Source: an uncultured delta proteobacterium
GTDB lineage: Bacteria; Myxococcota_A; Polyangia; Fen-1088
Length of the DNA stretch: 64,000 nucleotides
Direction: 5' to 3'
NCBI GenBank assembly: GCA_963796685.1
Contig: CAWCMR010000025.1
Location: 160,001 to 224,000 of the forward strand
Shown: piece by piece, positions 6,268 to 54,170 of the stretch
Layout: every line of letters begins with the position of its first letter
Numbering within the stretch: position 1 is the stretch's first letter
Made by a program: the position numbers and the translations under genes
Notes under the pieces: model-generated
Databases searched by the model: none
What the model was told of the DNA's origin: nothing
Seen by the model: the letters and a program-made list of their open reading frames with translations, nothing else

Positions 6268-6295
6268 GACGGAATTCGATTGCCCATGCCACTGC
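6268..6295 (+). promoter_or_regulatory. Bipartite motif copy 1 (candidate ECF-sigma promoter)
   Basis: GACGGAATT-cgattgcccatg-CCACTGC upstream of the fibro-slime gene. Confidence 0.6.
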
Positions 6296-6454
6296 TAGTT
6301 CTTCCCTGCGATGCTTTGGGACGGATCTGTCGCTGGGCATCACTCGCGTATCGACTCGAAGGACACGAAAGGTGCTATCTTCTACCAAAGCGCAAACCGT
6401 ACGACTCCTGCAGGGTCTTTGTCCAACCACTCGTGGCTATCAAGGCACGTTGAC

Positions 6455-8695
6455 ATGACGAGAGACGATTATCTCCGGGATCCAGTTTTTCGTGACGCAT
6501 CCGCGCGGCCGGCATTCTTTGCAGTTGTCGCGGTGGCGTTGCTGACGGTAGGCGCGTGCGCCAACGCCTCGGTCGTGAACGGCGGCGAGGGCGGGACCGG
6601 CGCAGGAGCGGGCCCCGCCGGCGGGGGCGGCCGGGGCGGCGGCGGTGGCGGGGGCGGCATCATCGTGAACCTCGACTCGCACGCTCGCGAGGATGCGAGC
6701 GTGGACCGGCCGGGGGGCGGGACCTGCGGCGATGGCGTCATCGAGCGCAGCGAGCAATGCGATGACGGCAATACGACGAGTGGCGATGGCTGCAGCCGGA
6801 TTTGCCAAATCGAAGCGAACTGGGATTGTCCCACCGAGGGACAACCCTGCAAGTACGTGGGGAATTGCGGAAGCGGTGTCCTGACCTCGAACAAGGTCTG
6901 CGACGACGGCAATACCGTCAGCGGCGATGGCTGCTCCAGCGACTGCAAGACCGTCGAGACCGGCTACATCTGTCGGGTGCCGGGCAAGCCCTGTTCCACG
7001 CGGTGTGGTGACGGCATCCTCAAGGGTTTCGAGACCTGCGACGACGGCAACACCAACAGCGGCGATGGTTGCTCCGCGACGTGCAAGATCGAGCCTGGCT
7101 TCGACTGCGCCGGTAGCCCGAGCACCTGCAATCCGACCGTCTGTGGCAACGGGAAGAAAGAGGCCGGCGAAACCTGCGACGACGGCAACACCCTGCCCTA
7201 CGATGGTTGTTCCTCGAACTGCCAGAGCGAGCCCAAGTGCGGCACGGACACCAGCGCGGTGGGCGCCTGCAAGAGCACGTGCGGCGATGGCATCCTCTGG
7301 CGCGGCATCGAGGATTGCGACGACGGCAACGTGGCCGATGGCGACGGCTGCTCCCATGACTGCAAGATCGAAGCGGGATGGACGTGCAAGTCCTTCTTCG
7401 ACGATCCACCCGCGAAGTTGCAGATCCCGATGATCGCTCGCGATTTTGAATCCTACTCCAGCGGCCCTCCGGTCACCGGACATCCCGACTTTGGAACCTA
7501 CTGCTGTGACGACAGCCTTCAGAAGGGCAAGGGCGTCCTGCGCTCGACGCTCGACACTAACCACAAGCCGGTCTGGGCGGGACCGGATCCAGTTCCCGAC
7601 CCAAAGCAAATCGGGTTCACAGGTAAGACCTATTTTGACCAGTGGTATCGCGACGTCAGCGGCGTCAACATGACTTACTACGAAACATTGACCTTGCTGC
7701 AAAACGCGACCAGCAAGACCACCTATGCGATGAACAGTGACACCGACCAGCCCTGGTATGACCTCTGCGGATTCTTCCCACTCGACGATCTCACCAAGCC
7801 GCTCGTCGATCAGAACACCGGGCAGCCAGTCACCTACCACTACGACCAAGGACAGCCAGACGACCGCACCTGCCACGCGTACCAAGGGTTGGGATTTGGC
7901 AACAGCTGGGCGAACCACAATTTCTCCTTCACCACCGAGCTGCGCTACTGGTTCCAGTACCAGGGCACCGAGCAACTCAAGTTCACCGGGGACGACGACG
8001 TGTGGGTGTTCATCAACGGCACCATGGCGATCGAGATGCCCGGTGTCCACAACCGGGCGGTCGGAACCGCAATCCTCGATGCATCCAATGGAACCGCTCA
8101 GGTTGGCTATGGCGAGCCCCCTTCAAGCTACACCACCGTCGATTTGAAGATGACCATCGGCAGCGTCTACGAGGTCGTAGTGCTCCAAGCGGAGCGCTGG
8201 TGCTGCGGCTCGAACTACATGCTGACCCTGGCGAACTTCATCGGGGGGAAGACCCAGTGCACTCCCACCTGCGGCGATGGCGTGACCGTCGCCGACGAGG
8301 AGTGCGACTGCGGCGACGGCACGGGTCCCGTGCCCGCGGGCTGCCCCGGTCCCAACAGCGATACGACCTACGGAGGTTGCACCACGCAGTGCAAATGGGG
8401 TGCCTTCTGCGGCGACGGCACGGTGCAAGGCCCGCCGAATGGTCCGGAGGAATGCGATCTGGGCGCGCTGAACGGCGACACCGGAGCGGGCAGCCAGTGC
8501 AGCGTCTCGTGCAAAGCACCGCGCTCTTGCGGCGACGGCAAGGTGGACACCGATCTGGGCGAGGAATGCGACCTCGCCGGCAACAACGGGGTCAAGCTCG
8601 ACAGTCAGTTGCAACCAGTCAGCGATCCCAACGATCCCGGGGCGCAAGTGTTCTGCACGGCCGACTGCTTGATTCCGCCAGGGATCGTCTACTAG
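6455..8695 (+). CDS. Fibro-slime (PA14-like) domain lipoprotein with Myxococcus Cys-rich (DUF4215-type) repeats
   Basis: Lipobox VGAC, many CGDG..E.CDDGN...GDGCS repeats, central IARDF/HPDF/FDQWY/NFSFTTELRYWF/FTGDDDVWVFING. Alternative start 6311. Confidence 0.85.
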   Translation: MTRDDYLRDPVFRDASARPAFFAVVAVALLTVGACANASVVNGGEGGTGAGAGPAGGGGRGGGGGGGGIIVNLDSHAREDASVDRPGGGTCGDGVIERSEQCDDGNTTSGDGCSRICQIEANWDCPTEGQPCKYVGNCGSGVLTSNKVCDDGNTVSGDGCSSDCKTVETGYICRVPGKPCSTRCGDGILKGFETCDDGNTNSGDGCSATCKIEPGFDCAGSPSTCNPTVCGNGKKEAGETCDDGNTLPYDGCSSNCQSEPKCGTDTSAVGACKSTCGDGILWRGIEDCDDGNVADGDGCSHDCKIEAGWTCKSFFDDPPAKLQIPMIARDFESYSSGPPVTGHPDFGTYCCDDSLQKGKGVLRSTLDTNHKPVWAGPDPVPDPKQIGFTGKTYFDQWYRDVSGVNMTYYETLTLLQNATSKTTYAMNSDTDQPWYDLCGFFPLDDLTKPLVDQNTGQPVTYHYDQGQPDDRTCHAYQGLGFGNSWANHNFSFTTELRYWFQYQGTEQLKFTGDDDVWVFINGTMAIEMPGVHNRAVGTAILDASNGTAQVGYGEPPSSYTTVDLKMTIGSVYEVVVLQAERWCCGSNYMLTLANFIGGKTQCTPTCGDGVTVADEECDCGDGTGPVPAGCPGPNSDTTYGGCTTQCKWGAFCGDGTVQGPPNGPEECDLGALNGDTGAGSQCSVSCKAPRSCGDGKVDTDLGEECDLAGNNGVKLDSQLQPVSDPNDPGAQVFCTADCLIPPGIVY

Positions 8696-8722
8696 ACGGC
8701 CACGCGCACGCCGAAGTCACGA

Positions 8723-8750
8723 AACGGAAACGCTGGGCTCGCGCCACTGC
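8723..8750 (+). promoter_or_regulatory. Bipartite motif copy 2
   Basis: AACGGAAAC-gctgggctcgcg-CCACTGC upstream of GH2. Confidence 0.55.
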
Positions 8751-8797
8751 CCAACGATGACGTCATTCCAAAGTCGTGGCTCGCAGGAGATTCTGCT

Positions 8798-11600
8798 GTG
8801 AGAAGCCGTGCATTCCCCGTTGGTTCCATCGCTCTTCTAGTCCTGGCAGCGTGCGGGTCCAAGGGCTCGTCCGAACCCGGACATACAGGTGGAAGCACCG
8901 GCACCCCCGGCTCCGGAGGAGCGTCGAGCAATGGCGGCACGAGCGCTGGCGGCGGAGACACGACACGCGGTGGGGCTGGGGGAGGCGGTGGCGCTGCGAA
9001 TGGGGGAGCGCCCGGGTCGGGCGGTATGACCGGGTCGGGTGGCAAAGGCAGCGGCGGAGCGGGCGGTCAAGCTGGCAACGCAACTGGTGGGGCGGCTTTC
9101 GGCGGCCAAGCCGGCAAGGGAACAGGCGGCGTGGCAACCGGCGGAACGGCCGGCATGGGTGGCGCGGCGACAGGCGGCCAAGGCGGCGCCGGAATGGGGG
9201 GCGCAGCAACCGGCGGGCAAGCCGGCAGCGGAGCGGGAGGAAATGGCTCTGGGGGGGTTGGTTCCGGCGGCCAGGGGGCGGTATCCAGCGCGTTGGTCAA
9301 TACCTACGACGGAGAGCGAACGACCACGGTCAGCTTCGACCTTGCCTGGAAGTTCCATCTCGGCGACGTCAGCGGCGCGCAGAACACGACCTTCGACGAT
9401 TCGTCCTGGACTTCCTTGGACGTGCCCCATGATTGGAGCATCTCGCTGCCATTCAACCAGAGCTCGGCGGGAACCTATGAAGGCGGGTACCTCGACGGTG
9501 GCTTGGGCTGGTACCGAAAGACCTTCGACCTCCCTGCTTCGGCCTCGGGACAGAGGGTCATGGTCCAATTCGATGGCGTGTACATGGACAGCACCGTGTA
9601 CATGAACGGCACGCAAGTATGCGCCCGTCCCTACGGCTATTCCTCGTTCGAATGCGACTTCACCTCGAACGCCAAGGTTGGCGCGTCGAACGTGCTCGCG
9701 GTCAAGGTCAACAACCAATTGCCCAGCAGCCGCTGGTACTCGGGCAGCGGCATCTATCGCCACACTTGGCTCAAGACCGTGAATCCGGTGCGCGTAGCCT
9801 ACACGGGCTCGCAGGTATCGACGCCGACGGTCTCGACCTCGAGCGCCACCGTCAATATTGCCGTCACGGTCCAGAATGACGGAACGACCGACCAATCGGT
9901 GACCGTGGCGAAGCTCGGTTCGCGACGCCTCGGGCACGGAGGTGGGCAAGGGCTCTTCGGCGGCGACCAGCGTCACCGCCGGGAAGACCGCCAACGTGAC
10001 GCACACAGCGACCGTCTCCAATCCCAAGCTCTGGTCACCCTCCTCGCCCACCCTCTACTCCGTGGTGACAACCGTGTCCGTGGGCGGCTCCGTGGTCGAC
10101 ACGTACACCACCCCGTTCGGCATTCGCACCTTCGCCTTCGACGCGAACACGGGGTTCTCCCTGAACGGCACCAAGATGAAGCTCAACGGCACGTGCAATC
10201 ACCACGACCTGGGCGCCTTGGGTGCGGCTACCAACTCTCGCGCCATCGAGAAGCGCCTGCAGATGCTCAAGGACATGGGCGTCAACGCGCTTCGCACGTC
10301 CCACAATCCGCCCGCGCCCGAGCTGCTGGATATTGCCGATCGCCTCGGACTCATGGTCATGGATGAGGCCTTCGACTGCTGGTATGCGGGCAAGCACACC
10401 TACGACTACGGGCGATTCTTCAACCAGTGGTATGATACGGACGTCCAGGGCTACGTGGCCCGCGATCGCAACCACCCGAGCGTCATCATCTGGAGCATCG
10501 GCAACGAGGTCGCACAGGCCGGCGACAAGGCCACGGTGCAGAAGCTGATCACCTCGGTTCACGCCAAGGACACCACCCGCCCCATCACCCAGGCCTATGC
10601 GGCGTGGGTCGACGTCAGCAACATCACGGGTCTCGAAGACCTGGTGGGAATCAACTACGCCCCGGATCGTTACGACTCGGTTCATACATCCAACCCGAGC
10701 TACAAGATGTTCGCCAGCGAGTCGTCGTCGGCCCTGCGCAGCCGAGGCATCTACAATAACAACAACAATCAGGAGTCGTCCTACGACGACTCCTGGGCCG
10801 GCTGGGGGGCGGGCGCGGAAGCGTCGTGGAACAGCGTCAACACGCGCGCGTGGATCGCCGGCGAGTTCATCTGGACCGGCTTCGATTACATCGGCGAGCC
10901 CACGCCCTACCAATGGCCCTCCAAGAGCTCGTACTTCGGGGCCATCGACACCGCCTACTTCCCGAAGGACATCTTCTATTTCTATCAGAGCAAGTGGAAC
11001 GCCGGCGGCCCCACCATGGTCCACATCGTTCCCATGAATTGGACGAATTGGACGAACGGGCAATCGGTGAAGGTCTTGGTCTACACCAATGCCGACAGCG
11101 TCGAGCTCTTCCTCAACGACAAGTCGCAGGGTTCGAAGACCATGAATTCCACCACCGGGCACCTCCAGTGGTCGGTTCCATTCGCCACGGGAACGCTGCA
11201 GGCCAAGGCCACCAAGGGCGGTACGGTCGTTGCGACCGACACGGTGAAGACCGCCGGGGCAGCGGCGGCTCTGTCGCTGACCACAGACCGGGCTTCGATC
11301 ACCGCGGATGGACGCGATCTGTCCTTCGTCGAGGTGGACATCGTCGACGCTCAGGGCGTTGTCGTCCCGCAGGCCAACAACAAGGTCGATTTCACGATCA
11401 GCGGGCCAGGGGCACTGGTGGGCCTCGACGCTGGAGACTCGACAAATCACGACTCCTACAAAGGTACGTCGCATGCCGCCTTCAGCGGCAAGTTGATGGC
11501 CATCATCCAGTCCACGACTACAGCCGGAACGATCACGCTGAAGGCGGCCTCCGGATCGCTTGCCGGCAGCGCGGTGAACATCACGACGACTACACCCTAA
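8798..11600 (+). CDS. GH2 beta-galactosidase-like lipoprotein, frameshift at 9911-9912
   Basis: Lipobox LAAC, PHDWSI, FDGVY, SRWYSGSGIYR in the first frame. RTSHNP, RDRNHPS, WSIGNE, FIWTGFDYIGEP in the second frame. Removing one A (GAAGCTC to GAGCTC) joins them. Confidence 0.85.
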
Positions 11601-11646
11601 GAAGGCACGCAGGCAGCAGCGACACGGTCATCAGAGTCGATAGCTT

Positions 11647-11683
11647 AACCGCCCAGGCCGCTCCGGCTGGGCGGTTTCTTTTC
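11647..11683 (+). terminator. Probable intrinsic terminator after GH2
   Basis: AACCGCCCAG...CTGGGCGGTT stem followed by TCTTTT. Confidence 0.6.
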
Positions 11684-11716
11684 CATGAAATCGCGCGGCT
11701 TCGATGCTCCTCCCAT

Positions 11717-11744
11717 GATGGAATTCGAGCCCTGCCTCCACTGC
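11717..11744 (+). promoter_or_regulatory. Bipartite motif copy 3
   Basis: GATGGAATT-cgagccctgcct-CCACTGC, 5 nt before ATG 11750. Confidence 0.6.
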
Positions 11745-11749
11745 GAGAC

Positions 11750-13483
11750 ATGATGGTTTTACTACGGAAGTCGTGCGCGCATACGAAACCCTCGAGCTTC
11801 GTCGCCCTTGCCCTTCTCTGGGGAATCGTGGGCTGCGGAACGAGTGGTGACGGTGTCCCGTCAGGCGGAACCGGTGGCGGAACAGGTCCGCAGCGCGACA
11901 GCGCGGTCGGCTCAGGAGGCTCCCACGGTACAGGGGGCAGCTCGGGCGCCGGCGGTGCCACGGGTGGACAGAGCGGTAACGCGGGTGCGGGAGGTCGAAC
12001 CGGTGGTGCCGGTGGGCAATCCTCGGGCAGCGGCGGCGGCGCAGGGGCCGGAGGTGCTTCCGGCACAGGTGGCACAGCGGGCAAAGGGGGAGCGGCAGGC
12101 ACCGGCGGTGCCACAGGAGGTACTGGCGGCCTGCCAGGCACAGGTGGCACCGCCGGTTCGGGAGGCTTGGGCGGTGCGACAACGGACGGAGGCGTGACTG
12201 GCACGGGCGGAAGGACAGGAGCCGGCGGCACCCCTGCAACCGGCGGCACCAGCGGCGCGACAGCAACGGGCGGCAAGGCTGCAACGGGTGGCGCAGGCGG
12301 CCTGGGTGGCTCGACCGCAACCGGCGGCGCCGGGGCCGGCGGCACAGCCGGCACGGGGGGGTCTACAGCGCTCGCGGCGACCCCACCCATGGGCTGGAAC
12401 TCGTGGAACACCTTCGGATGCAGCCCCAGCGACACCCTGATCCGCGGCATTGCCGACGCGATGGTCACGAGCGGGATGGCGGCGGTCGGGTACGTGTACG
12501 TCAACATCGATGACTGTTGGATGAATGGCCGCGATGCCAGCGGGAATCTTCGGCCAGACCCCACGAAATTCCCCAATGGCATTTCCGCCGTGGCCGACTA
12601 CGTACACGGCAAGGGTCTCAAGCTCGGAATCTACGAGGTGCCAGCGGCTGTGACTTGCGCCGGCCGCGGCTCGTTCGGCTCAGCCGCTGGCGTGGGAAGC
12701 CTGGGACACGAAACCGCGGACGCCAAGTCTTTCGCCTCCTGGGGTGTCGACTACCTCAAGTATGATTACTGCTGGGGGGACATGAAGGGCTTCAAAGTCA
12801 TGAAGGACGCCCTTGTCGCCACTGGCCGCCCGATCTTCTACAGCATCAACCCGGCCTCTGGCACCGGGGCGTCCTGCGTGCCGCCGACCTGCACGATCGA
12901 TCTGGTGAACATCGCCAACATGTGGCGCATCGGATTCGACATCAATGCCAGTTGGTCGTCGGTCCTGAGCTGCATCGACTTGGACAAACCCCTGTCCAAG
13001 TACGCGGGGCCTGGACACTGGAACGATCCGGACATGCTCGAGGTCGGCAAAGGCATGTCGGCTGACGAGGATCGCTCGCACTTCGGCATGTGGGCGATGC
13101 TGGACGCCCCTCTGTTGACGGGCAACGACCTCCGCTCGATGAACGCAAGCACCAAGGCCGTCCTGACCAACACGGACGTGATCGCCGTGAACCAAGATCC
13201 TCTCGGGGCGCAGGCCACGGTCGTGGCCACACCGGGATCCAATCAGGAAATCTGGTCCAAGTCGCTCACGGGAACCAACACGCGTGCCGTCGCGCTGTTG
13301 AACCGCTCCGAGGCGGCGGTCTCCATGACGGTTCAATGGAGCACGATCGGCATTCCGACCGGGGTCGCCACGGTGCGCGATCTGTGGAACCAGAAGGATC
13401 TCGGCTCGTTCACCGACTCTTACACGGCAACCAGCGTCCCGAAGCACGGCGTCGTGATGCTGAAGGTAACGAGCGGCCCCTAG
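11750..13483 (+). CDS. GH27 alpha-galactosidase / beta-L-arabinopyranosidase-like lipoprotein
   Basis: Lipobox IVGC, Gly linker, TPPMGWNSWN, NIDDCW, YLKYDYC, MWRIGFD, WNDPDMLEVG. Confidence 0.88.
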   Translation: MMVLLRKSCAHTKPSSFVALALLWGIVGCGTSGDGVPSGGTGGGTGPQRDSAVGSGGSHGTGGSSGAGGATGGQSGNAGAGGRTGGAGGQSSGSGGGAGAGGASGTGGTAGKGGAAGTGGATGGTGGLPGTGGTAGSGGLGGATTDGGVTGTGGRTGAGGTPATGGTSGATATGGKAATGGAGGLGGSTATGGAGAGGTAGTGGSTALAATPPMGWNSWNTFGCSPSDTLIRGIADAMVTSGMAAVGYVYVNIDDCWMNGRDASGNLRPDPTKFPNGISAVADYVHGKGLKLGIYEVPAAVTCAGRGSFGSAAGVGSLGHETADAKSFASWGVDYLKYDYCWGDMKGFKVMKDALVATGRPIFYSINPASGTGASCVPPTCTIDLVNIANMWRIGFDINASWSSVLSCIDLDKPLSKYAGPGHWNDPDMLEVGKGMSADEDRSHFGMWAMLDAPLLTGNDLRSMNASTKAVLTNTDVIAVNQDPLGAQATVVATPGSNQEIWSKSLTGTNTRAVALLNRSEAAVSMTVQWSTIGIPTGVATVRDLWNQKDLGSFTDSYTATSVPKHGVVMLKVTSGP

Positions 13484-13499
13484 CTGCAGCGAAGCACGA

Positions 13500-13548
13500 A
13501 CCGGTGCTGCTCCAGCCCTCGACCGTCGAGGGCTGGAGCAGCACCGGT
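13500..13548. repeat. Perfect 24-bp inverted repeat with 1-nt centre
   Basis: ACCGGTGCTGCTCCAGCCCTCGAC-C-GTCGAGGGCTGGAGCAGCACCGGT. Confidence 0.9.
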
Positions 13549-13652
13549 GTGCCTCACCCGAACAGGTCATTCCTCCAAATTTTCTTGAACCGCTCCTTCG
13601 GTCCGCTGCTACTGGGACACGAAGCACTTCAACTTGCCGGAGGAGAGCGTCT

Positions 13653-14780
13653 ATGAAACTCGCAATTCCGAATCTGCTCAAGAGCGGTTTATTGCTCGGT
13701 CTGATGAGCGTTGGCGTCTACGCATGTGGACAATCGAACGGCGGTGGCAACGGCACTGGCGGCAGCTCGGAGGGGGGCTCGGGTGGCACGGGTAGCGGAG
13801 GTCATACTGCCGGCTCGGGAGGCTCCACCAGCGCGGGCGGAACCACGACCTCCGGCGGGACAACGGGCTCGGGTGGCACGCATGAAACGGGCGGCACCGT
13901 TGGCTCAGGTGGCAGCAACTCCGGCGGCACATCGTCGTCGGGCGGCGCAGCGACAGGAGGCTCGTCCTCGGGTGGCGCAGGCGGTTCGTCCAGCAGCACG
14001 GCCATGGGCGGCACTGGAGGCATGCTCTCGGAAGGGACCGGAGGCAAGGTCACGGGTAGCGGCGGCAAGGTCACGGGTAGCGGCGGCATGGCCCCGGGCA
14101 GCGGCGGCAAAGGCGGTACCAGCGGCCCGACCGACGGAGGCCCAGCAGCCGGTGGCACCGGCGGCGGCACATCCTCTGGTTCGTGCCAGAAAGGCCAAGT
14201 GAAGCCCGCCGAGGTCGTCATCATGGGCGAATCCTTCTATGCGATGCCCCCCGAATACAATGAGAAGCGGATAGAGTCGGATGCCCAAGCGGCGGGAGCG
14301 CTGGCTTCTGGCGCCACCTACCGAAACGTAGCCGAAAGCGGACAACCGATGAGCTATATCGTGGGGACGGAGTGGACCAATGCCACCAAGGGCGGCGCAA
14401 CAGTCAAGGTCGTCATCATGGATGGCGGTGGTATCGATTGTCTCACGTCGGGATCGTGTCCCACGTGTGCCTCCCAATTCACAACCCTGCTCGGCAAGAT
14501 GGCTACCGAAGGCGTGCAGGACGTCATCTACACGCGCTATCCGGAACCGGGAGCCCCTCCCGGCTCGAACGCCTCATTGAAAGCGTGCCTCGACTCCGTT
14601 ATGCCGACAATGCAACCTGTGTGTGAAAACGCCACCGGACTGAAATGCCATTGGGTGGACTTGAGACCCGTTTTCGTGGCTGGCGACACCACGGACGGCC
14701 TCCATCCGACCCAAACAGGCGGAGACCACGTCGGAGACGCGATTTGGTCCGAGATGGTCAAGGATTGCATCGCCCAGTGA
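13653..14780 (+). CDS. Divergent SGNH hydrolase lipoprotein
   Basis: RBS GGAGGAG, lipobox VYAC, Gly linker, MGESF, DGGGID, DGLHP. Confidence 0.7.
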   Translation: MKLAIPNLLKSGLLLGLMSVGVYACGQSNGGGNGTGGSSEGGSGGTGSGGHTAGSGGSTSAGGTTTSGGTTGSGGTHETGGTVGSGGSNSGGTSSSGGAATGGSSSGGAGGSSSSTAMGGTGGMLSEGTGGKVTGSGGKVTGSGGMAPGSGGKGGTSGPTDGGPAAGGTGGGTSSGSCQKGQVKPAEVVIMGESFYAMPPEYNEKRIESDAQAAGALASGATYRNVAESGQPMSYIVGTEWTNATKGGATVKVVIMDGGGIDCLTSGSCPTCASQFTTLLGKMATEGVQDVIYTRYPEPGAPPGSNASLKACLDSVMPTMQPVCENATGLKCHWVDLRPVFVAGDTTDGLHPTQTGGDHVGDAIWSEMVKDCIAQ

Positions 14781-15736: not shown

Positions 15737-17829
15737 AGAAGCCCGAGGGCGGCGCAATCGCCTCACGCTTGTCCTGATGCTCTCCGTGAAATTCTCAGTC
15801 TGGTGGCCCATCGGCACTACCGGCAGTTCTCGCAATTGATGCTGGACGTTCTCACCGATTGCGACACCAACAAGTCGTATCGGTTGATCTTCCCTACATC
15901 GAGATACTCTTCGCACTTGCCACAGACAAGGTACCAGGAGACTACCCATAGCTCTACGGGCCGACAAAAGGCAGTCTCCGGTGATTTGTCAGTAGTAGCC
16001 GGAGGCGTTCAAGTAGACATCGTCAATCCACGTGTCGGCGAGCGAACCCTGCTGCTGGCAGTTGACCATTATGCTGCCGGTGCCACTTGGCGCCGCAAAG
16101 GAGGGAGTGATGCTAGGGCTCGCCCAAGTGGTGGAGGCGGGACCACTCTTGTATTGCATCAAATCGAGGGCGTCTCCCCCGCAACCGCTCCCCGCGTAGG
16201 CGAATACAGTGCACATAACGGCATCGGCGTCGGAGGAAGACAACTCCTTGAAACGATATCCGAAGTGATACCCGCCGGCCCCTGCGCTGACACACTGAGT
16301 GAGCTGGCCGAAAAAGAACCCGTAGTAACTGAGGCGAAGTGAGCCCGAGGTTGGGCAAGAGTCGGCGTCGTTTCCACTGACCCAGTTCTCGAGCGGCGAG
16401 GGACAGACAGAACTGGGACAGCCGTCACCGGACGTCCAACCCGACAAGGACGTTGCGAAACCCGGGTTGGCGAGGAGATTGCCCGAGCTCGGTTGACCGC
16501 ACTGGCAGGTGTGGCTCGAGGTGCAAGTCGCACTAGGCCCGTACGAGGCGGTGCAATCGCTAGGAGATGTGCACGGGACACACGCGTTGTTGTAGCACCT
16601 TGGATTGGGGCTCGAACAATTGCCGTCGCCCGCGCATTGGACGCAGGTAGTGCCTGAACAGACCGGCTTGGAGGGCGACGTGCAGTCGCTGCTCGCTAGG
16701 CACCCGACGCAGGTGTTGCTGCTGGTATTGCACACGGGCGTAGTGCCTGAACAGTTGCTGTTCCCAGCGCATTGGACGCATGCATTGTTGGAGCACACGG
16801 GTTTGGAACCTGAACATCCGCCGCTCGCGGTGCATTGGACGCATGTGTTCGTGGTGGTGTTGCATTTCGGCGTGGAGCCCGAGCAGGTGGTGTCGTCGGT
16901 GCACTGGACGCATGTGTTGGCGGTGGTATTGCATCTCGACGTGGAGCCCGAACATTGGCTATCCCCGGTGCATTGGACGCACGTGGTGCCGCCAGAGCAG
17001 TGCTTGCTGGTGGTCGTACAGTTGTTGGAGCAGTTTCCACAGTGGGCGTCTGTGTTCAAGGCCACGCAAGTGCTTCCCCCGCAGGTATCCTGGCCAGCGG
17101 GACAGCCGGTCGCGCACGTCGTGGTATCCGCGCAGGCGTACGGGGCACAAGTCCGGCTGGCCGGCGCTGGTGTCCCGCAGTGACCAGCGCCATCGCACAT
17201 CCGAGGGTAGGTCTGAGTGCCGCTCGAACAGTTTCCCGCCACGCACTGCGCCACTGGATAGTTGCAAGCTTGCCGGTGCGCGGCGGTTCCGTCGCAAGTT
17301 CCCCCACACATGGCATAACTGGCGTCGGTCGTGCACGCCGTGCGCGGGGTGGTCGTCGGGGAACAGGTACCCTTGGCCGAGGCGGTGTTGCAGGCTTCGC
17401 ACTGCCCGGTGCAGGTGGCGTCGCAGCAAACGCCGTCAGCGCAGATGCCGCTTGCGCATGCTGCCGCAGCGGCGGCAGTGCAACTGGTGCCGTTGGGGTT
17501 CCCGACGCACGTACCGTTGTTGCACGCTGGCGTATTTCCACTGCAGCCTCCACAGCACTCCGTGGAGGCGATGCAAGTGCCGTTGCAAAGTTTTTGCGAA
17601 CCGTTGCAGCTCACCGACGTCCCGCCGCTTCCAGTCCCGCCGCTTCCGATCCCGCCGCTCCCGGTCCCGCCGCTTCCGATCCCGCCGCTCCCGGTCACCC
17701 CGCCCGAGCCGGGAGTCCCGCCGGTCACGATGATTCCACCCGAACCGATGGTTCCAGCAAGCCCTGTCATACCGCCCGAGCCGTTGATTCCGCCGCCGCC
17801 CCCGCCACTTGCCCCACCTAGGGGCGAAT

Positions 17830-25912: not shown

Positions 25913-25918
25913 GACCGC

Positions 25919-30144: not shown

Positions 30145-30147
30145 GGT

Positions 30148-45786: not shown

Positions 45787-45916
45787 GTATGTCTCCTCGT
45801 TTGTGCTGCCAGGGGCCGACCCCATGCAATCGGGTCTGCCGATTCTATCGAATGGGGTGACGCCGCGTCCATGAGGCGAGGGTACAATCCGTCCAGGGTA
45901 GAATCCATTGTGCTTG

Positions 45917-45944
45917 GCAGTGGCGGGACCACCTGAATTCCGTC
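45917..45944 (-). promoter_or_regulatory. Bipartite motif copy 5
   Basis: Minus strand GACGGAATT-caggtggtcccg-CCACTGC upstream of the GH39-GH30 operon. Confidence 0.6.
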
Positions 45945-46112: not shown

Positions 46113-48179
46113 TTGCCACCGGCAAGCTTCCGGAACGTGCTCGGCTTCCTCGCGTTTCGACCGAAGATGGACACCACCTATAACGCGTCTGACCTGGCCG
46201 CCGTGTCCCTCACGGCAGCGGTCGTCGCCGTCTGGGCGGAGGCTGCGGGAGGCTCGTTTTCGTTTCTCGCGCTCGTCGCCTGCGAGGCGGCTTTTCTCGC
46301 GTTCTACCTGGTGGGCTCCCTCTTCGCCGGCTGGCGAGCTTTGGCAGCGGGCGTCCTCTTCGATCTTCCGCTGCGCTTGCTCATGGGCTACGCCGCCGTC
46401 AATACTGCGCTGCTCGTGCTGGCCTGGCTCTCTCCGCTCGGCATCATCGCCAACTTCGGCATCTTGCTCGCGGTCGCGGTCTCCCTGTTCGTCGCCGCAA
46501 GACCGGTCAGGCGGCCGAACCAAGACCATCCAGTCGGGCTGTTGGTCCTCGCCTTGTCCTTGGCCGCTGCCACGCTGTGGTGCCAAGACTCGCTCCGCCC
46601 CACATCGGTGGCAGGCGACGTGGTCGTGTTCAAGCCATGGATCGACGGCTTCTATCACGCGGTTCACATTCGAATCTTCGGCGCCAGCCACGGGGCGTCC
46701 TCCATCGAGGACTTCCGGTTGGCGGGCATGCCTGCCCGCATCTACCACTATGGGGCCTATCTGACGCCGGCCCTTATCAAGCAGGCGTCGGGAATCCATT
46801 CGTACGCCGCCTTCGCCGGGATTTTGGCCCCCATGGGGGTCTTCTTCACCGGGCTCGCGGCCTACGCCCTCGTCGGCTCCTTCTGGGGCCCCTGGCCGGG
46901 GCTTGCCGCATGCGCGGCGCTGCTGCTCTTGCCCGATGGCGCCCAGCAGGGGATGCGGAACACGTTCATGTCGTATCACTGGCTCACCCAGATCTCGCCC
47001 AGCGCAAGCTACGGCCTCGGCCTGCTGGCTGTCGCCTGGCTCTTCGTCCTGCGCGGGTGCACGCAGGGCAATCGCTTGCAGCTCCTCGCGGGCTGGCTGC
47101 TGGCAGGAATTCTCGCCTTCTACAAGCTGCACTTCTTCATCGCGAGCGCGCTCCTGCTCTGGCTCGTGCCTCCGCTGTTCTTCCGTTCCGACCTTCGCCC
47201 GCTCGGGCTTGCCAAGCGGGCCCTGTGGGCACTCTCTGCCGTCGCGGTCTATGTCGTGACCCTCGTCGCCGTACAGAGGGTGCCCGGCGTTCCCATCATC
47301 CGTTTCGACGGATCGAGCGTGGGCGAGATCCTCAAGCTGGTCAAGACTTTCACGCAGCCGGGGCCCTTGCGCAACTTCCTTGCCGATCGCATCGGGAGGG
47401 AAAGCCCCTTGCTTTCGAACCTCCTCTTCGGGGTTCCCTTCATTCTGCTGGCAGCTCTCGGGCTCTTCGCGCCGTTGCTGGTGGTTCTGTCCATCCGCAT
47501 GCGTAAGCGCACTCCTCTCGTGCTCGTGCTCTTCCCGCTCCTGCTCGTGGCCAATTTCCTGGCGATGTTCTTCGGGCTGGCGCTCGACTTCAGGAGCAGC
47601 ACGCCCGACGAGCTGTCGCACCGCCCGGTCATGGTGATGTACTTTGTTGTCGTGGCGTGGGTCGGCGGGGCGGCTGGCCTGTCGTTGCTCGAGTCGCGGC
47701 GCCTTGGGCGTTTTGCCCGACCGGCGATGCTCGGCTTGGCCATCCTGCTCATGGCCGTCCCGGCGTTCCTCGGATCGGGTGTCCAAAGGATGTGGGCCAT
47801 GCGCATGTTCTGTCCCGTCCGAGTCCCCATCGGCCTCTATCGGGCAGCCGAATACATGCGCGACCACGGTGATGCGCAAGACATCTTCCAGGATGCTCAG
47901 TTCGATCGGACCAGCACCTTGGCCGCCCTATCGGAGCGAAGGGCGTACGCCGCACACACGATGACGATCATGCCCTACCACCGAGAACGCGTGGAAGAGC
48001 GAGAGGAGGCCATCGAGAAGCTCATGCAACTTCGCGACCCCGTTGCGGTTGCCGCCACCGCTCACCGGCTCGGTCTTCGTTGGTTTCTGCTCGAACCTAG
48101 CGACAAGGTCGAATGGTCAGAAGAGATTGCCAGGTGGATGGTATTCGAGCTGCGTGGATACAGGCTCTATCGATTCTGA
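46113..48179 (+). CDS. Large multi-TM membrane protein, possible GT-C fold
   Basis: About 16 hydrophobic segments; loop DGFYH...AG...YHY; soluble C-terminus. Start may be ATG 46167. Confidence 0.55.
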   Translation: MPPASFRNVLGFLAFRPKMDTTYNASDLAAVSLTAAVVAVWAEAAGGSFSFLALVACEAAFLAFYLVGSLFAGWRALAAGVLFDLPLRLLMGYAAVNTALLVLAWLSPLGIIANFGILLAVAVSLFVAARPVRRPNQDHPVGLLVLALSLAAATLWCQDSLRPTSVAGDVVVFKPWIDGFYHAVHIRIFGASHGASSIEDFRLAGMPARIYHYGAYLTPALIKQASGIHSYAAFAGILAPMGVFFTGLAAYALVGSFWGPWPGLAACAALLLLPDGAQQGMRNTFMSYHWLTQISPSASYGLGLLAVAWLFVLRGCTQGNRLQLLAGWLLAGILAFYKLHFFIASALLLWLVPPLFFRSDLRPLGLAKRALWALSAVAVYVVTLVAVQRVPGVPIIRFDGSSVGEILKLVKTFTQPGPLRNFLADRIGRESPLLSNLLFGVPFILLAALGLFAPLLVVLSIRMRKRTPLVLVLFPLLLVANFLAMFFGLALDFRSSTPDELSHRPVMVMYFVVVAWVGGAAGLSLLESRRLGRFARPAMLGLAILLMAVPAFLGSGVQRMWAMRMFCPVRVPIGLYRAAEYMRDHGDAQDIFQDAQFDRTSTLAALSERRAYAAHTMTIMPYHRERVEEREEAIEKLMQLRDPVAVAATAHRLGLRWFLLEPSDKVEWSEEIARWMVFELRGYRLYRF

Positions 48180-48410: not shown

Positions 48411-49274
48411 ATGAGCCAGTCTACTGGATATCCGGGCAGTCGGTGCCTCATAACGTGCAGCACCTTGATACCTCTCACTCTCTTGACGCTTACAGCCACG
48501 CCCGCACTTGGCGACGGCAAGCACGCCCAGGAGCGCGCCGCCCGAAAGGCATGTCTTGGCGGCGACTACATCAAAGGCGTCAACATTCTGGCGGATCTCT
48601 TCGTCGATACGAAGGACCCTACTTACATCTTCAACCAAGGTCGTTGCTTCGAACAAAATCATCGGTACGAGGACGCCGTCTCCCGGTTCGAGGAGTACTT
48701 GCGCATGCCCGAAGGGGAGCTGGATGCAACGGGACGATCCGCGGCTAAGAAGCACATCGCTGATTGCAAGAATCGGATTCTCCCCGACCAACCGAGCAGG
48801 TCCGAAGCGTCAGCGCCCCGGCCGTTTGTTCCGCCTCCTCCTATTCCCGCCGCGCCTCCAGAGACCACAAGTACATTGACTCCGTCGCCGTCTGCGATGA
48901 CACCAACGTCGTCCACATCGATCACCTCTCAACCCGAGCCCACCGTCAGCGGGTCGGGTCTGCGAGTCGCTGGCATCGTCACAGCATCCGTTGGCGTCGC
49001 TGCCGTGGTCACTGGGATTCTCCTCAACGTCAAGGTCAATGGCATGGTCGACAGCATGGACACAACCATCGGCAACTACGAAGCCAAGAATTCAGACCGC
49101 AAGACCTACGAAACCATAGCATGGATAGGCTACGGTGCGGGCGCAGCATGTCTAGTCACGGGCGCCATTTTGTACCGTTTCGGACTTAGCCGCGCACGCG
49201 CGGCCACCAGCCTTGCCCTCTTGCCCGCGGTTGGCCCTGACCGGGCGGGCGCTCTGTTGAGTGGAGAGTTCTGA
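48411..49274 (+). CDS. Secreted TPR-like protein with C-terminal hydrophobic hairpin (module 2 partner)
   Basis: Close paralogue of 19701..20513: ERAARKACL, YIFNQGRCFEQN.RYEDAV.RF.EYL, LRVAGIV, ends ALLSGEF. Start uncertain (48384-48411). Confidence 0.75.
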   Translation: MSQSTGYPGSRCLITCSTLIPLTLLTLTATPALGDGKHAQERAARKACLGGDYIKGVNILADLFVDTKDPTYIFNQGRCFEQNHRYEDAVSRFEEYLRMPEGELDATGRSAAKKHIADCKNRILPDQPSRSEASAPRPFVPPPPIPAAPPETTSTLTPSPSAMTPTSSTSITSQPEPTVSGSGLRVAGIVTASVGVAAVVTGILLNVKVNGMVDSMDTTIGNYEAKNSDRKTYETIAWIGYGAGAACLVTGAILYRFGLSRARAATSLALLPAVGPDRAGALLSGEF

Positions 49275-51508
49275 TGAATGCGACTACGACCTCGGTTGGG
49301 CAAATGCGTAGTCAATGTGCGACTGTCTGGGTGCCACTACTGCTCTGCCTGAGTGCACCCGCCTGCTTCCGATCCCCGGATACCTCGAAGATCCCATGTG
49401 TCGAAGCAGCCAACTGTCCAAACGGCTACCACTGTGCGAAACCCCAGGGAACGAACCAGGGAACTTGTGCCCCGGGGCCGGCATCCGCCGATGGGAGCAT
49501 CACCGACCTATCCACGTTGGCTGGGCTCGGCGGCAAAGGTGGGGGCTTGGCTGATGCCGCGCTCGGCATAGACACAAGCGACGCAAGGACTGCCAACGCT
49601 GACAGCATGTTGTTCGACGTAAGCCCAGGTGGGACAGGGGGCGTAGGCGGATCGGCCGGTTCCGCGGCATCGGGCGGTTCAACATCATCTGGAGGCACGA
49701 CCTCTGCCCCGGATGCTCCGAGCGGGGCCGGAGGCACGACCTCGCCCCCGGATGCCCCCATAACAAATGACGTATCCGACGCCCCGACGACTCTGCCAAA
49801 CGGTTCAGCCTGCATGGTTCATGACCAGTGCAGCAGTGGTTTTTGTGTCGATGGTCATTGCTGCAATAGCAATTGCGACGGGAATTGCGCGTCCTGCGCA
49901 ACCGGAACCTGCAGCTTCACCTCGACACCCCGAACGCCTTGCGCTGGCTCCGGCAAGTGCGCCGGCATTTGCGACAAGTCGAACACGAAAGCTTGCACCT
50001 TCGACAACACAACGGTCTGTGCTGCTCAGAGCTGCTCGAGTGGTGTGCGCACGAACAAGTCGATATGCGATGGCCAGGGCAACTGTCCAGCTCCGACCAC
50101 GACCACCTGCAACGGCAACCAGTGCGCGGCCGACGGCAATGACTGCGCCACCTGCACCGACGAGCCCACGGCAACGACCTGCGCCGGCGGCCACTGCGGC
50201 CCGACCGCCAACAATTGCGGCCATACGGTACAGTGCTCGACGACGTGCACGGGCAATTACCAAACATGTGGAGGCGGTGGCGTGACTGGCATGTGCGGCT
50301 GCACCTCCGTCAGCACAAGCCAGACGTGCGGAACATCCAACTGCGGCACGCCAACCGACAATTGCGGGAAACAGGTCAGTTGCGGAACCTGCTCCGGTTC
50401 GAACACATGCGGTGGTGGCGGAACGGCCAATGTTTGCGGGTGCACGACCAACAGCAATGGATGCGTCGGACGCGCCTGTGGAAGCGCGTCTGATGGATGC
50501 ACCGGCACGATTACGTGTGGCTCCTACAGTGGCGGCTGTCAGACTGGGTACCAATGCAATACCACCACAGGCCAATGCTCGTGTGTGCCGAATAACAATG
50601 CGTGCGTCGGTCGCGCCTGCGGCACCGCATCCGACGGATGCACCGGTACGATTGCGTGTGGCTCCTACAATGGTGGTTGTCAGACTGGGTACCAGTGCAA
50701 CACCACCACAGGCCAATGCTCGTGCGTGCCGAATAACAATGCGTGCACCGGTCGCCAATGTGGTACCGCATCCGACGGATGCACCGGTACGATTGCGTGT
50801 GGCTCCTACAATGGTGGTTGTCAGACTGGGTACCAGTGCAACACCACCACAGGCCAATGCTCATGTGTGCCGAATCCCTCTCCGTGTGGCACTCGTGTCT
50901 GCGGCTCGGTGTCCAACGGGTGCGGCGGCACCACTTCATGCGGCACCTGTGCGACGGGGCAATCCTGCGACGGAAATGGAAAGTGTCAATGCAATTCGGG
51001 TGCTACGTCCGTCTGCGGCGGTTGCCTTAGCTGGGGCTTCGAATCGGGCACTCAAGGTTGGGGGATTGACACCAGCATGTACGGCGTCAATCCTGGCGCA
51101 ATTATCTTGGGCAGAGTGAGCCAGAGCGCGAGTCAACACCACTCTGGTAGTTACTCCCTGTCATTTTACACTCAGTTCGATGGCCAAGTCACTATCGATG
51201 CCACAGTGGCAGTGAATGTATGCGCCGCGGCCACGAACGTGTATGGACTCCAGGTTTCTGGATACGTCATGGCCGTACCTGACACAGGCTACTCCACGCT
51301 TCCCAACAACATACTGTCGGTATACTCTGACGCCATGGCACCTGTGATTCAGCTCGGCATTCACAGTGTCAACACCTGGATCCCGTTCGTGGGGACTTTT
51401 ACTCTGTCCCCGGGATCTTTGACTTTCTTGGGTTTGGACTTCAAGGTAACCGGTGCCGCATGGAACGGAACGCTCTATGTTGATGACGTAACGATTGCTG
51501 CTCCGTAA
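49274..51508 (+). CDS. Cys-rich repeat lipoprotein with C-terminal CBM-like domain
   Basis: TGATG overlap with the upstream gene, lipobox APAC, Cys repeats, C-terminus WGFESG..GW...LYVDDV. Confidence 0.8.
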   Translation: MNATTTSVGQMRSQCATVWVPLLLCLSAPACFRSPDTSKIPCVEAANCPNGYHCAKPQGTNQGTCAPGPASADGSITDLSTLAGLGGKGGGLADAALGIDTSDARTANADSMLFDVSPGGTGGVGGSAGSAASGGSTSSGGTTSAPDAPSGAGGTTSPPDAPITNDVSDAPTTLPNGSACMVHDQCSSGFCVDGHCCNSNCDGNCASCATGTCSFTSTPRTPCAGSGKCAGICDKSNTKACTFDNTTVCAAQSCSSGVRTNKSICDGQGNCPAPTTTTCNGNQCAADGNDCATCTDEPTATTCAGGHCGPTANNCGHTVQCSTTCTGNYQTCGGGGVTGMCGCTSVSTSQTCGTSNCGTPTDNCGKQVSCGTCSGSNTCGGGGTANVCGCTTNSNGCVGRACGSASDGCTGTITCGSYSGGCQTGYQCNTTTGQCSCVPNNNACVGRACGTASDGCTGTIACGSYNGGCQTGYQCNTTTGQCSCVPNNNACTGRQCGTASDGCTGTIACGSYNGGCQTGYQCNTTTGQCSCVPNPSPCGTRVCGSVSNGCGGTTSCGTCATGQSCDGNGKCQCNSGATSVCGGCLSWGFESGTQGWGIDTSMYGVNPGAIILGRVSQSASQHHSGSYSLSFYTQFDGQVTIDATVAVNVCAAATNVYGLQVSGYVMAVPDTGYSTLPNNILSVYSDAMAPVIQLGIHSVNTWIPFVGTFTLSPGSLTFLGLDFKVTGAAWNGTLYVDDVTIAAP
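50441..50875 (+). repeat. 141-bp tandem repeat x3 plus partial (47-aa Cys-rich unit)
   Basis: Units start at 50441, 50582, 50723 and 50864; unit CVPNNNACVGRACGTASDGCTGTIACGSYNGGCQTGYQCNTTTGQCS. Confidence 0.9.
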
Positions 51509-52039: not shown

Positions 52040-54136
52040 CTACTTGCCGTAGCCCACGCTGACGATATTCGATTGAACGGCATTGTCCGTCGCATCGGAC
52101 GGATAGCCGGCGAGGATGGCCCCTTCGTAGAAGGTTCCCGAGCTCAAGGTCGAGTTGCTGTAGCAGCAGTCCCCACCGCTTCCGAGGACGATGGCTCCTT
52201 CCTTCTTCATCGCGTAGGGAAGCTTGCCCTTGTAGAACGTTGTCAAGTTGCCGGTCGTCGCATCAGCACCACTCAGCGCAAACTCGGAGGTGCCGTTATT
52301 TTTTTCTATGGCGGTAACATATGCCTGCGTCATGCTGGGAGAGCTATTGTTCTTGTTCCCGTCGCCCTGTGCTTTGAGACCGCACTCGAAATCGGCCATG
52401 ACCCACGGACCCGAGCCGGCCCCGGTGCCCCAGTTTGTATTGGTGCTGAAGTTGACGGCATCCATTGCGCCGCATGATGCCACCGTTCGGGAGAGCTCGC
52501 CGTTGCCGTAGTCGAAGCAGCACCCGCTGATGTTCTTGTGCGTGCCGCTCGTCACCATGTAGATGCCTTGGGGAGAGTTGCCCGTTGGCACCGCCGACTT
52601 GGAACCATCCCTCCAATAGGCCTGACCGGTTCCCATCCAAAGCGAGTAGACCTTGTGACCACCGACACTCAGCTGCTCTTTGGTGGCACTCGGGGTTGTT
52701 TGGACCGTGGACTTGCTGCGAACGCTGGCATCCTCTGAATCCGTGGTCTCGGCTTCGACGAAATTTCCATTTCCAGACTGGTCGTAAACCTTGGTGATAA
52801 CGCACGTCGTGCCCTTACAGAACGTGTCCTGCACCGACGAGTCGGCAATTCCACCCGGGCTCAGGAGTGGGATGTCTGTCGTCGTGCTGTCCGAAGCGCG
52901 CTTAACCTGGTAGAGTGGTCCACTGTACGAGCCAAAAAGTGCACGCACCGTGCTATGCGCTGCGACACACTTGTTGTTGGCACTCTGATAGATGTCGCAC
53001 GGCCCGGTACTCGTAGCGGTGGAGCCTCCCGTGGAGGTCGTCCCGCCCGCCCCGGTCGTGCCACCTGAGCCTGTGGTGCCTCCGCCCGCACCGCTCGAAC
53101 CCGCGGTGCCTCCTCCTGCGCCGCTCGAGCCGCCTGCGCCGGTCTTGCCGCCCGAGCCAACCGTGGCGCCGCCCGAGCCAGCTCCACCACCCGAGCCAGT
53201 CGCTCCGCCCGCGCCAGTTCGGCCGCCGGAGCCAGTCGCTCCTCCGCCCGAAGAACCGCCGGTGTTTCCACCCGCGCCCCCGCCGCCCGAACCGCCGCTC
53301 TTCTGGAGTACGACGGTGCCTGTCACCGGAAGGATCGTGGGCGATGGAGTCAAGGTCAACGTGTCTCCCGAGACGCAGTACGAGTAATCCACTGTGTCGT
53401 CGGTGTTGAGCCCGCTGCCCGAGGTCTTGTAGTTGCCGCTATTTGCCGCCCAAGGGGATACCACCCCAATACCACCAGGCTGGTTAGCCGTGGCCGAGCA
53501 GTTGCACTGGCCGCTCGCATTAGTTGAGCAAGTTACAGTGCTCCAGCCAAGGGCTTCGATGGCACCCGCCATCTTGGAGCATTCGACGGAAATCGACGAA
53601 ACCGTAAGACACGAGGCGTCTAACGGAAACGTCATGGAGCCCGTCGTGGTCGTGTTGTCCGAATAGGTCCCGTTGTCGTTGGCGGTCCACGTTCCGTTGA
53701 CCTGAAGGGATCCGGTGACAGGAACGGTCTTGCACCCCAAACTAGCCAACGAAACGTCCATGTCTCCCGACAAAGTCAGGCACGAAGACGTCACGTTCCA
53801 GGTTCCAACCACGTCGCCACCGCAGGGCGCAACATTGGGACAATTCTTGCCAGAGCTTCCACCGCTGCCAGAAGAGCCGCCATTGCCTGACCCTCCGCCG
53901 GACTGACCGCCACCCGAGCCGCCGCTGCTCCCACCCGAGCCACCTGACGGTTTGCCACCCGAGCCGTCGCTATTCCCGCCCGAGCCACCTGAGGTAGAGC
54001 CCGAGCACCCAGAGCCCAGGAGCCAGAGCGCGGCAGCTATGACGCACAGCGAACTGCCGTGCAGCATCCATTGTCCTGGCCGCGAGCTAGAGATGCGCGG
54101 GGGGCGTCGGTTTCCGGATAGTTCGTTGCGAGTCAT
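52040..54136 (-). CDS. GH54 (AbfB catalytic) lipoprotein with extra N-terminal Cys domain
   Basis: Lipobox GSGC, GPCDIY, AAHSTVRAL, YDQSGNGN, CCFDYGN, GPWVMADFE, GGDCC, GTFYEG. Confidence 0.87.
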   Translation of the reverse strand: MTRNELSGNRRPPRISSSRPGQWMLHGSSLCVIAAALWLLGSGCSGSTSGGSGGNSDGSGGKPSGGSGGSSGGSGGGQSGGGSGNGGSSGSGGSSGKNCPNVAPCGGDVVGTWNVTSSCLTLSGDMDVSLASLGCKTVPVTGSLQVNGTWTANDNGTYSDNTTTTGSMTFPLDASCLTVSSISVECSKMAGAIEALGWSTVTCSTNASGQCNCSATANQPGGIGVVSPWAANSGNYKTSGSGLNTDDTVDYSYCVSGDTLTLTPSPTILPVTGTVVLQKSGGSGGGGAGGNTGGSSGGGATGSGGRTGAGGATGSGGGAGSGGATVGSGGKTGAGGSSGAGGGTAGSSGAGGGTTGSGGTTGAGGTTSTGGSTATSTGPCDIYQSANNKCVAAHSTVRALFGSYSGPLYQVKRASDSTTTDIPLLSPGGIADSSVQDTFCKGTTCVITKVYDQSGNGNFVEAETTDSEDASVRSKSTVQTTPSATKEQLSVGGHKVYSLWMGTGQAYWRDGSKSAVPTGNSPQGIYMVTSGTHKNISGCCFDYGNGELSRTVASCGAMDAVNFSTNTNWGTGAGSGPWVMADFECGLKAQGDGNKNNSSPSMTQAYVTAIEKNNGTSEFALSGADATTGNLTTFYKGKLPYAMKKEGAIVLGSGGDCCYSNSTLSSGTFYEGAILAGYPSDATDNAVQSNIVSVGYGK

Positions 54137-54142
54137 ACCCGT

Positions 54143-54170
54143 GCAGTGGAATCAGCTCTCGAATTCCGTC
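54143..54170 (-). promoter_or_regulatory. Bipartite motif copy 6
   Basis: Minus strand GACGGAATT-cgagagctgatt-CCACTGC, 6 nt before ATG 54136. Confidence 0.6.

Follow-up and report, generated by a model that had tools for sequence, protein, structure and literature searches.

The 64,000-nt stretch analysed here (the window) covers positions 160,001 to 224,000 of contig CAWCMR010000025.1, from an uncultured delta proteobacterium of the Polyangia lineage Fen-1088, and carries six copies of a two-box motif, RAYGGAAWY-N12-CCACTRC, ahead of genes for glycoside hydrolases (GH) and a fibro-slime protein. Genes were labelled from Pfam and NCBIfam scans of the window's open reading frames (ORFs), which supported the families assigned in an earlier, sequence-only reading of this DNA (fibro-slime, GH2, GH27, GH54 and GH39-GH30). 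The gene downstream of copy 1 (6268-6295, +; GACGGAATTC-N11-CCACTGC) spans 6311-8695 (+) and encodes a secreted protein in which myxobacterial cysteine-rich repeats (DUF4215 / TIGR02232) are combined with a fibro-slime domain. Copy 2, which diverges most from the others (8723-8750, +; AACGGAAACG-N11-CCACTGC), precedes a GH2 beta-galactosidase-like (GalB-like) gene (8798-11600, +), and copy 3 (11717-11744, +; GATGGAATTC-N11-CCACTGC) a GH27 gene with Melibiase_2 and Melibiase_C domains (11750-13483, +); both products have lipoprotein-type signal peptides, that of GH27 from the first residues. Copy 4 (35074-35101, +; GACGGAATTC-N11-CCACTAC) stands before GH54a, an alpha-L-arabinofuranosidase B-like gene (35275-37311, +) that starts MKLQ... 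after AAGGAG and is followed on the same strand by GH39a (37455-39362, +). On the opposite strand, copy 5 (45917-45944, -; GACGGAATTC-N11-CCACTGC) precedes GH39b (43219-45786, -) with GH30 downstream of it (41239-43194, -), and copy 6 (54143-54170, -; GACGGAATTC-N11-CCACTGC) precedes GH54b (52040-54136, -). Read by eye, the products of the motif-bearing window genes carry signal peptides at their start, mostly with a cysteine lipobox.

A pattern search of the window returned exactly these six matches, at the positions given in the sequence-only reading, and the mean across 100 dinucleotide-preserving shuffles was 0.00. When up to three mismatches were allowed, the stricter pattern GACGGAATTC-N11-CCACTGC gave seven matches against 0.19 expected, five of them known copies and two weak sites within coding DNA. 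A weight matrix trained on the six copies scored them at 22.7-34.0 bits, the next best places reaching 15.9 and 13.8 bits. Furthermore, a sequence-only model built from 18 sites assigned the six copies, which belong to its training set, E values of 3.9e-7 to 2.2e-4. In all six copies the spacer from GGAAWY to CCAC is constant at 12 nt and differs in sequence from copy to copy, and all six are intergenic and point at the next gene, as had been described; the intergenic share of the window is about 15% (9400 of 64000 nt, from a rough gene list). The next match of the 18-site model, at 22623-22649 (-) (E = 0.003; 15.9 bits), and the site at 4946-4973 (+) (13.8 bits) were taken as chance, both lying in coding regions (the former on the opposite strand) with mismatches at invariant positions of the second box. 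A degenerate look-alike near 55518-55545 (+), found by eye with an ATG 8 nt on, was dropped because the 18-site model did not report it. The weaker variant TGAACC-N11-CCGCTGC proposed at 13586-13609 is present as sequence; as a copy of the motif it did not hold, its spacer being 1 nt shorter and the site unreported at E up to 10.

A collection of species-representative genomes was scanned with GAYGGAATTC-N11-CCACTRC, both boxes being required, and yielded at least 119 matches in at least 117 loci; flanks of 2 kb were taken for 80 of these loci. Most of the matches listed were singletons from unrelated phyla, and at least 25 of the 119 listed represented recurring coding motifs (20 FolD-like DGILVQLPLP and 5 DGILIPPPLRFD). 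Further non-myxobacterial matches recurred in another frame, and the non-myxobacterial set was used as background. Ten loci among the matches listed (L003, L031, L034, L044, L052, L077, L079, L080, L096 and L097, of which L079 and L080 overlap) derive from Myxococcales, Polyangiaceae or 'delta proteobacterium' metagenome-assembled genomes (MAGs), or from a MAG sharing this promoter family; among the matches listed, contigs matched more than once fell only in this group. A looser search of the ten loci added GACGGAAATC-N11-ACACTGC, before GH30 in L003, and CACGGAATGG-N11-CCACTGC, before a lipoprotein gene in L031. In L020, from a Myxococcaceae MAG, the match falls within the coding region of a TylF methyltransferase, whose profile begins at position 67, and was taken as chance.

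All 12 sites from other genomes lie upstream of a gene and are co-oriented with it. One site each precedes a GH39 gene and the divergently transcribed GH30 gene of L003, four precede GH54 genes (L044, L052 and two tandem genes in L079/L080), one a ribulokinase-like FGGY kinase gene, the araB orthologue, in L031, and five precede genes for signal-peptide proteins with glycine/serine-rich linkers that had no Pfam family or were cut by the locus end. The window's GH39b and GH30 are orthologues of the two divergent motif-bearing genes of L003. Protein identity to the window genes is 60% for GH39, 60% for GH30 and 60% for araB, and 76-80% over the N-terminal domain for the GH54b orthologues. When orthologous promoters were anchored on the motif, flanks and spacers proved unrelated and only the two boxes were kept. 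In the 18-site alignment the invariant columns of the 28-mer are A2, G4, G5, A6, A7, C23, A24, C25, T26 and C28. Four promoters from three MAGs (L034, L077, L096 and L097, the last two 2 kb apart on one contig) also have spacer and downstream sequence in common (AGGCGCTCCCG ... TGATCACAACGGC); those of L077, L096 and L097 precede a lipoprotein starting MTSSRFLRTTVA and that of L034 a different lipoprotein, and these loci end early. Together with the myxobacterial repeat family in the window's fibro-slime gene, these relatives assign the window to Myxococcota, probably close to Polyangiaceae. The fixed orientation of the copies, their intergenic location and their recurrence ahead of the same enzyme families in different genomes are in keeping with the promoter-like behaviour first proposed for them.

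The second box is closely followed by an ATG at most window sites. The gap is 15 nt at copy 1 (ATG at 6311), 6 nt at copy 2 (8757), 5 nt at copy 3 (11750), 8 nt at copies 4 and 5, and 6 nt at copy 6 (54136); the ATGs at 8757, 11750 and 54136 are those from which leaderless messages had been suggested. An ATG thus falls 5-8 nt past the box in five of the six window sites (binomial P ~2e-6, for a range picked after looking) and exactly 8 nt past it in 5 of the 18 sites (binomial P ~1e-6, uncorrected for the offsets examined), and six of the 18 have CAA at the 7th-9th bases past the box (read by eye). Three genes open in this way with no Shine-Dalgarno sequence, namely the window's GH27, where ATGATG follows copy 3 with gaps of 5 and 8 nt, the L079 GH54, where the ATGATG gaps are 8 and 11 nt, and the L003 GH30, with an ATG at a gap of 8 nt; each encodes a signal peptide from its first residues onward. 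In members whose leaders measure about 45-190 nt, a clear GGAG, GAGG or AGGA precedes the start, and the distance from motif to start codon ranges from 5 to about 190 nt across genes. These gene starts suggest that some mRNAs of the regulon are probably leaderless, in line with the sequence-only reading.

The motif-adjacent ATGs of the window fall into classes: one opens the gene itself (GH27), two lie in frame upstream of the signal peptide (fibro-slime and GH54b) and three begin short ORFs. For fibro-slime and GH54b the true starts are likely internal to the motif-adjacent ATG. The fibro-slime start may be M49 (~6455), because the signal peptide sits about 60 residues past the first ATG; in GH54b, where the ATG at 54136 shares the frame of the gene, the signal peptide matching the L044 and L052 orthologues (by eye) starts at M24 (~54067), after AGGA. 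Of the short ORFs, a 14-codon frame (8757-8801, +) starts 6 nt after copy 2, and its TGA overlaps the GTG of GH2 (GTGA, 8798-8801); a 28-codon frame (35110-35196, +), opening 8 nt past copy 4, stops about 80 nt short of the Shine-Dalgarno-led start of GH54a; and a 41-codon frame (45783-45908, -) starts 8 nt after copy 5, its TGA overlapping the ATG of GH39b (ATGA at 45786). GH2 has its own AGGAG and GH39b its own GAGGAG Shine-Dalgarno sequence. The 4-nt stop/start overlaps with the enzyme gene in two of the three frames (GTGA and ATGA) may reflect translational coupling from a leaderless upstream ORF. Alternatively, the motif-adjacent ATGs may simply mean that the promoter prefers to start at an A in this context.

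Because genes start 5-8 nt after the second box without a Shine-Dalgarno sequence, and because an ATG lies at 8 nt in 5 of the 18 sites, we infer that the motif is the promoter itself. A consensus scan predicted no sigma-70-type promoter in 5900-14000, the region that holds three of the copies. Before GH27, a terminator-like hairpin with a T-rich tail 3' of GH2 (11655-11677, +) leaves only about 30-40 nt to copy 3; given this hairpin and the absence of a predicted sigma-70 promoter, there is no room for another promoter. As a ribosome-binding site is lacking too, transcription of GH27 should therefore start between CCACTRC and the ATG. The general start point is probably some 7-9 nt after CCACTRC, with the 8th or 9th base predicted from the 18 sites, which is somewhat further out than the 5-7 nt expected in the sequence-only reading. 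With +1 placed at the 9th nt past the box, the two boxes would occupy -36..-27 and -15..-9, with GAA at -32..-30 and CCAC at -15..-12. In the alignment the boxes are unlike each other and have no direct or inverted symmetry.

We consider it probable that the six copies are promoters of an alternative factor of the sigma-70 family which serves a regulon of secreted hemicellulose enzymes. Such a factor, encoded outside the window, would read all six promoters, the upstream box, with its core ACGGAAT, acting as the -35 element and the downstream box, with its core CACTRC, as the -10 element. The regulon would comprise secreted enzymes for arabinose-containing hemicellulose (GH54, GH39, GH30, GH27 and GH2) together with the fibro-slime protein, and in one relative would include ribulokinase. 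Besides that of GH27, the window's transcripts would begin at or next to the ATG of a short upstream ORF or of an in-frame extension. An alternative sigma factor is the most economical reader, because the boxes sit where sigma regions 4 and 2 read and CACTRC is unfit for the housekeeping sigma; the housekeeping promoter (TTGACA-N16-18-TATAAT) is not matched, the invariant -10 block being CACTRC. Two other classes of site were tried and rejected. Sigma-54 promoters have GG and GC elements 10 nt apart (TGGCAC-N5-TTGC), and when the alignment was set against this consensus, the columns 12 nt after the invariant GG lay in the variable spacer. A LacI-type or other dimeric operator was rejected because GACGGAATTC and CCACTGC are unrelated by inversion.

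Several observations weigh against an alternative sigma factor as the reader. No Sigma70 domain was found among the 113 window ORFs of at least 200 aa or among 148 open segments of at least 90 aa from window regions without a family-assigned gene, in agreement with the earlier statement that the sigma gene is not encoded in the window. The same held for 72 of 99 open segments of at least 130 aa from eight loci with their 2-kb flanks, the other segments overlapping identified GH54/FGGY genes or duplicating the L079/L080 overlap. The autoregulation usual for extracytoplasmic function (ECF) sigma factors was not seen in the window or the scanned loci, and none of the 18 sites literally has the ECF hallmark of AAC and CGT. 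Of the 12 sites in other genomes, 10 lack a motif-adjacent ATG. Since the genome scan required both boxes, conservation within the boxes is biased, except in the two looser copies. Lastly, the spacer from GGAATT to CCAC is 12 nt, compared with 15-16 nt in the hrp box read by the ECF factor HrpL (PMC8809351; the papers cited by PMC number, here and below, are drawn on in excerpt). The absence of a sigma gene near the motif is not decisive, because HrpL-type ECF32 factors are not autoregulated (PMC7826278).

An ECF factor was the reader named in the sequence-only reading; its alternative, non-housekeeping character stood, and the ECF label is tentative, the hallmark bases being absent, the box distance short and the register that of sigma-32. 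Some ECF groups deviate from AAC, and SigR uses GGAAT. A more specific version of the alternative-sigma reading, in which the factor belongs to the ECF (group 4) sigmas and recognizes an unusual consensus, is one that we hold as a tentative possibility, somewhat short of an even chance. Canonical ECF promoters carry AAC at -35 and CGT at -10 (PMC8103513), and their sigma gene is autoregulated and co-transcribed with an anti-sigma gene (PMC8103513, PMC7826278). The motif resembles them in its GGAA-type -35 box, its short conserved boxes, its strict orientation and its small dedicated regulon, and AAT-N16-CTR matches the AAC-N16/17-CGT distance of SigW-type promoters. It departs from them in having AAT or AAA for AAC (GGAAT or GGAAA in 17 of the 18 sites, GGAAC in none) and CTG or CTA, never CGT, 16 nt past AAT, a distance in itself compatible with ECF promoters. 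Moreover, the window and the scanned flanks held no ECF or anti-sigma gene, and no sigma or anti-sigma gene bearing the motif was found in the DNA examined. The centre-to-centre distance of the box cores is about 19 bp here, as against the 22-23 bp typical of ECF promoters and about 20 bp derived for sigma-32 (PMC10216364).

Among individual ECF promoters, the hrp box of HrpL in Pseudomonas syringae, Erwinia and Dickeya, GGAACC/T-N15/16-C/T/GCACNNA (PMC8809351), invites the closest comparison. Both are two-box oriented promoters with a GGAA(C/T)-type -35 box (GGAAT is itself of ECF type) and a CCACT-type -10 box (CCAC in 17 of the 18 sites, ACAC in one), and both serve a regulon of exported proteins; the hrpL gene, too, lies away from its targets, and ECF32 factors of this kind show that autoregulation can be dispensed with (PMC7826278). 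However, the motif falls outside the hrp box as defined in that excerpt, because its hexamer-to-CCAC spacer, 12 nt in 18 of 18 sites, is too short and brings the conserved CCAC 3-4 bp nearer the -35 box. The -35 sequence is ACGGAATTC and not GGAACC, and the last box is CCACTGC and not CCACNNA. Likewise, the targets here are glycoside hydrolases in a Myxococcota-like host, as against type III secretion genes in Gammaproteobacteria. A link between ECF factors and carbohydrate use has precedent in the carbohydrate-scavenging ECF240 group of Bacteroidetes (PMC7826278), and alternative sigma factors for polysaccharide-degrading enzymes are known from the SigI/RsgI regulons of cellulolytic clostridia (PMC6056542, PMC4711584). 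In these systems, as proposed here, alternative sigma factors co-induce secreted polysaccharide-degrading enzymes; they belong to other phyla, and the likeness is one of concept.

In a second specific version of the alternative-sigma reading, which we think unlikely, the factor is a group 3 paralogue of the sigma-32 type that has been co-opted for polysaccharide use. Myxococcus has several RpoH-like sigma factors (SigB, SigC and SigE). In the sigma-32 promoter dnaKp1, CTTGAA occupies -35..-30 and CCCCAT begins at -15 after a 14-bp spacer (PMC10216364), and the sigma-32 signal of delta-proteobacteria is given as CTTGAAA-[N11/16]-CCCCAT (PMC545781). With +1 at the 9th nt, GAA and CCAC of the motif would stand as in dnaKp1, and the spacing GAA-N14-CC occurs in 18 of 18 sites, so that the register would be identical to that of sigma-32 promoters, which have 13-14 bp spacers and a similar C-rich block upstream of -10; this register hangs on the inferred start point. 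Nevertheless, the sequence match is confined to GAA and CC-C, and the target genes code for hemicellulases and not for chaperones, proteases or other heat-shock proteins.

That a dedicated transcription factor binds the motif instead, as an activator overlapping a weak housekeeping promoter or as a repressor at its operator, appears rather improbable. Arabinose and hemicellulose regulons are usually controlled in this way, the upstream box contains the palindrome GAATTC, and the start codon follows at a variable distance (5 to about 190 nt), as would suit a regulator site. A dimeric regulator is argued against because the dissimilar boxes lack symmetry and the looser copies (GGAAACG, GGAAATC and GGAATGG) break GAATTC yet keep ACGGAA. 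Furthermore, in the three putatively leaderless cases the motif would fill -36..-9, which leaves no place for a TANNNT-type -10 element, and the 5900-14000 region gave no sigma-70-like prediction. The invariant 7-nt block at -15..-9 would also occupy a position read by sigma factors and not by activators.

A reading of the copies as remnants of duplicated genes, or as a small repeat, without a common regulatory role is highly improbable. It would draw on the two GH54 paralogues among the six genes and on the alike spacers and downstream sequences of L034, L077, L096 and L097. We rejected it because the window GH54 paralogues are just ~41% identical, the remaining members belong to unrelated families (GH2, GH27, GH39, GH30, araB and fibro-slime) and the boxes are exact while flanks and spacers are unconserved, orthologues at 60-80% protein identity keeping the boxes alone. 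Returning to an alternative sigma factor as the reader, a fuller picture can be drawn in which a Polyangiaceae-like clade has a dedicated factor, either an ECF sigma with a compressed hrp-box-like promoter or an RpoH paralogue, for an arabinose-hemicellulose regulon whose promoters fire at the start codon, giving a leaderless ATG at every member in the window's genome and control through coupled upstream ORFs. Taken as a whole, this picture is speculative, and we rate it as doubtful.

Polyangia-type myxobacteria rank among the main degraders of plant polymers in soils and peat, and to our knowledge almost nothing has been reported on how their enzymes are regulated. Full-text searches, together with the main text of PMC7826278 as distinct from its per-group promoter-logo supplements, turned up neither the motif nor any myxobacterial regulon of glycoside hydrolases under sigma-factor control. 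The concept of polysaccharide regulons run by sigma factors is already known from clostridial SigI and Bacteroidetes ECF factors, as described in the excerpts cited above; the present regulon, if true, would be a Gram-negative soil counterpart to those polysaccharide-sensing schemes. The promoter signature is conserved and easily searched, which would allow the whole regulon to be listed in any genome or MAG, and co-occurrence with the motif offers a handle for finding the responsible sigma factor. The promoters are compact, probably orthogonal and partly leaderless, and could be of use for expression work in high-GC hosts. If the overlapping upstream ORFs do couple, they would add a second, translational layer of control on top of the sigma switch.

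The sequence-only reading had also set the motif-bearing genes apart from an arabinose-utilization core under LacI control. In the window this separation held: the araDAB-lacI and transporter genes in mid-window have no motif copy, and a perfect 16-bp palindrome, CCGTGTACGTACACGG, occurs there twice, at 30148-30163 over the lacI start and at 30331-30346 between lacI and a sodium-solute symporter gene. The palindromes are likely the operator of the LacI-family regulator encoded at 29098-30180 and are distinct from the two-box motif; two mismatched copies, at 9594 and 12594, both lie within coding DNA. The separation did not extend to L031, where the motif precedes the araB orthologue. In L044 (2118-3954, +), the motif-bearing GH54 gene is divergent from a split transketolase, encoded as N- and C-terminal subunit genes, an arrangement that hints at pentose-phosphate genes beside the regulon.

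Several further features were observed around the motif-bearing genes. GH2 is found in two overlapping frames (8798-10366 and 9942-11600), between which homology changes frame near 9911-9960; a frameshift therefore lies there, and the gene is either a frameshifted pseudogene or affected by a sequencing error. The frame-broken GH2 still keeps its motif copy and a Shine-Dalgarno-led start. Directly 3' of the GH27 stop, a long, nearly perfect inverted repeat (13494-13550, +), which a simple terminator scan did not list, is likely a terminator. A third GH54 catalytic domain (54217-55444, -), broken into ORFs 54587-55444 and 54217-55041, sits directly upstream of the intact GH54b promoter, and the 18-site model reported no motif copy before it. 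Known RNA families gave no match in the window at gathering score. No Pfam or NCBIfam match was obtained for the ORFs at 46113-48179 (688 aa), 49274-51508 (744 aa) and 15989-17770 (593 aa), the first of which is divergent from copy 5. An IS4-type DDE transposase gene (17843-19159, -) separates the GH27/GDSL block from the esterase genes. At 1106-4893 (-), 20644-21996 (+) and 23556-25160 (-) the window holds alpha/beta-hydrolase or esterase-like genes, five in all, of which three stand in tandem; GDSL-type genes lie at 3-1013 and 13653-14780. None of these esterase-like and GDSL-type genes is preceded by the motif, and their products may be esterases of the acetyl or feruloyl type that belong to the same island for polysaccharide use.

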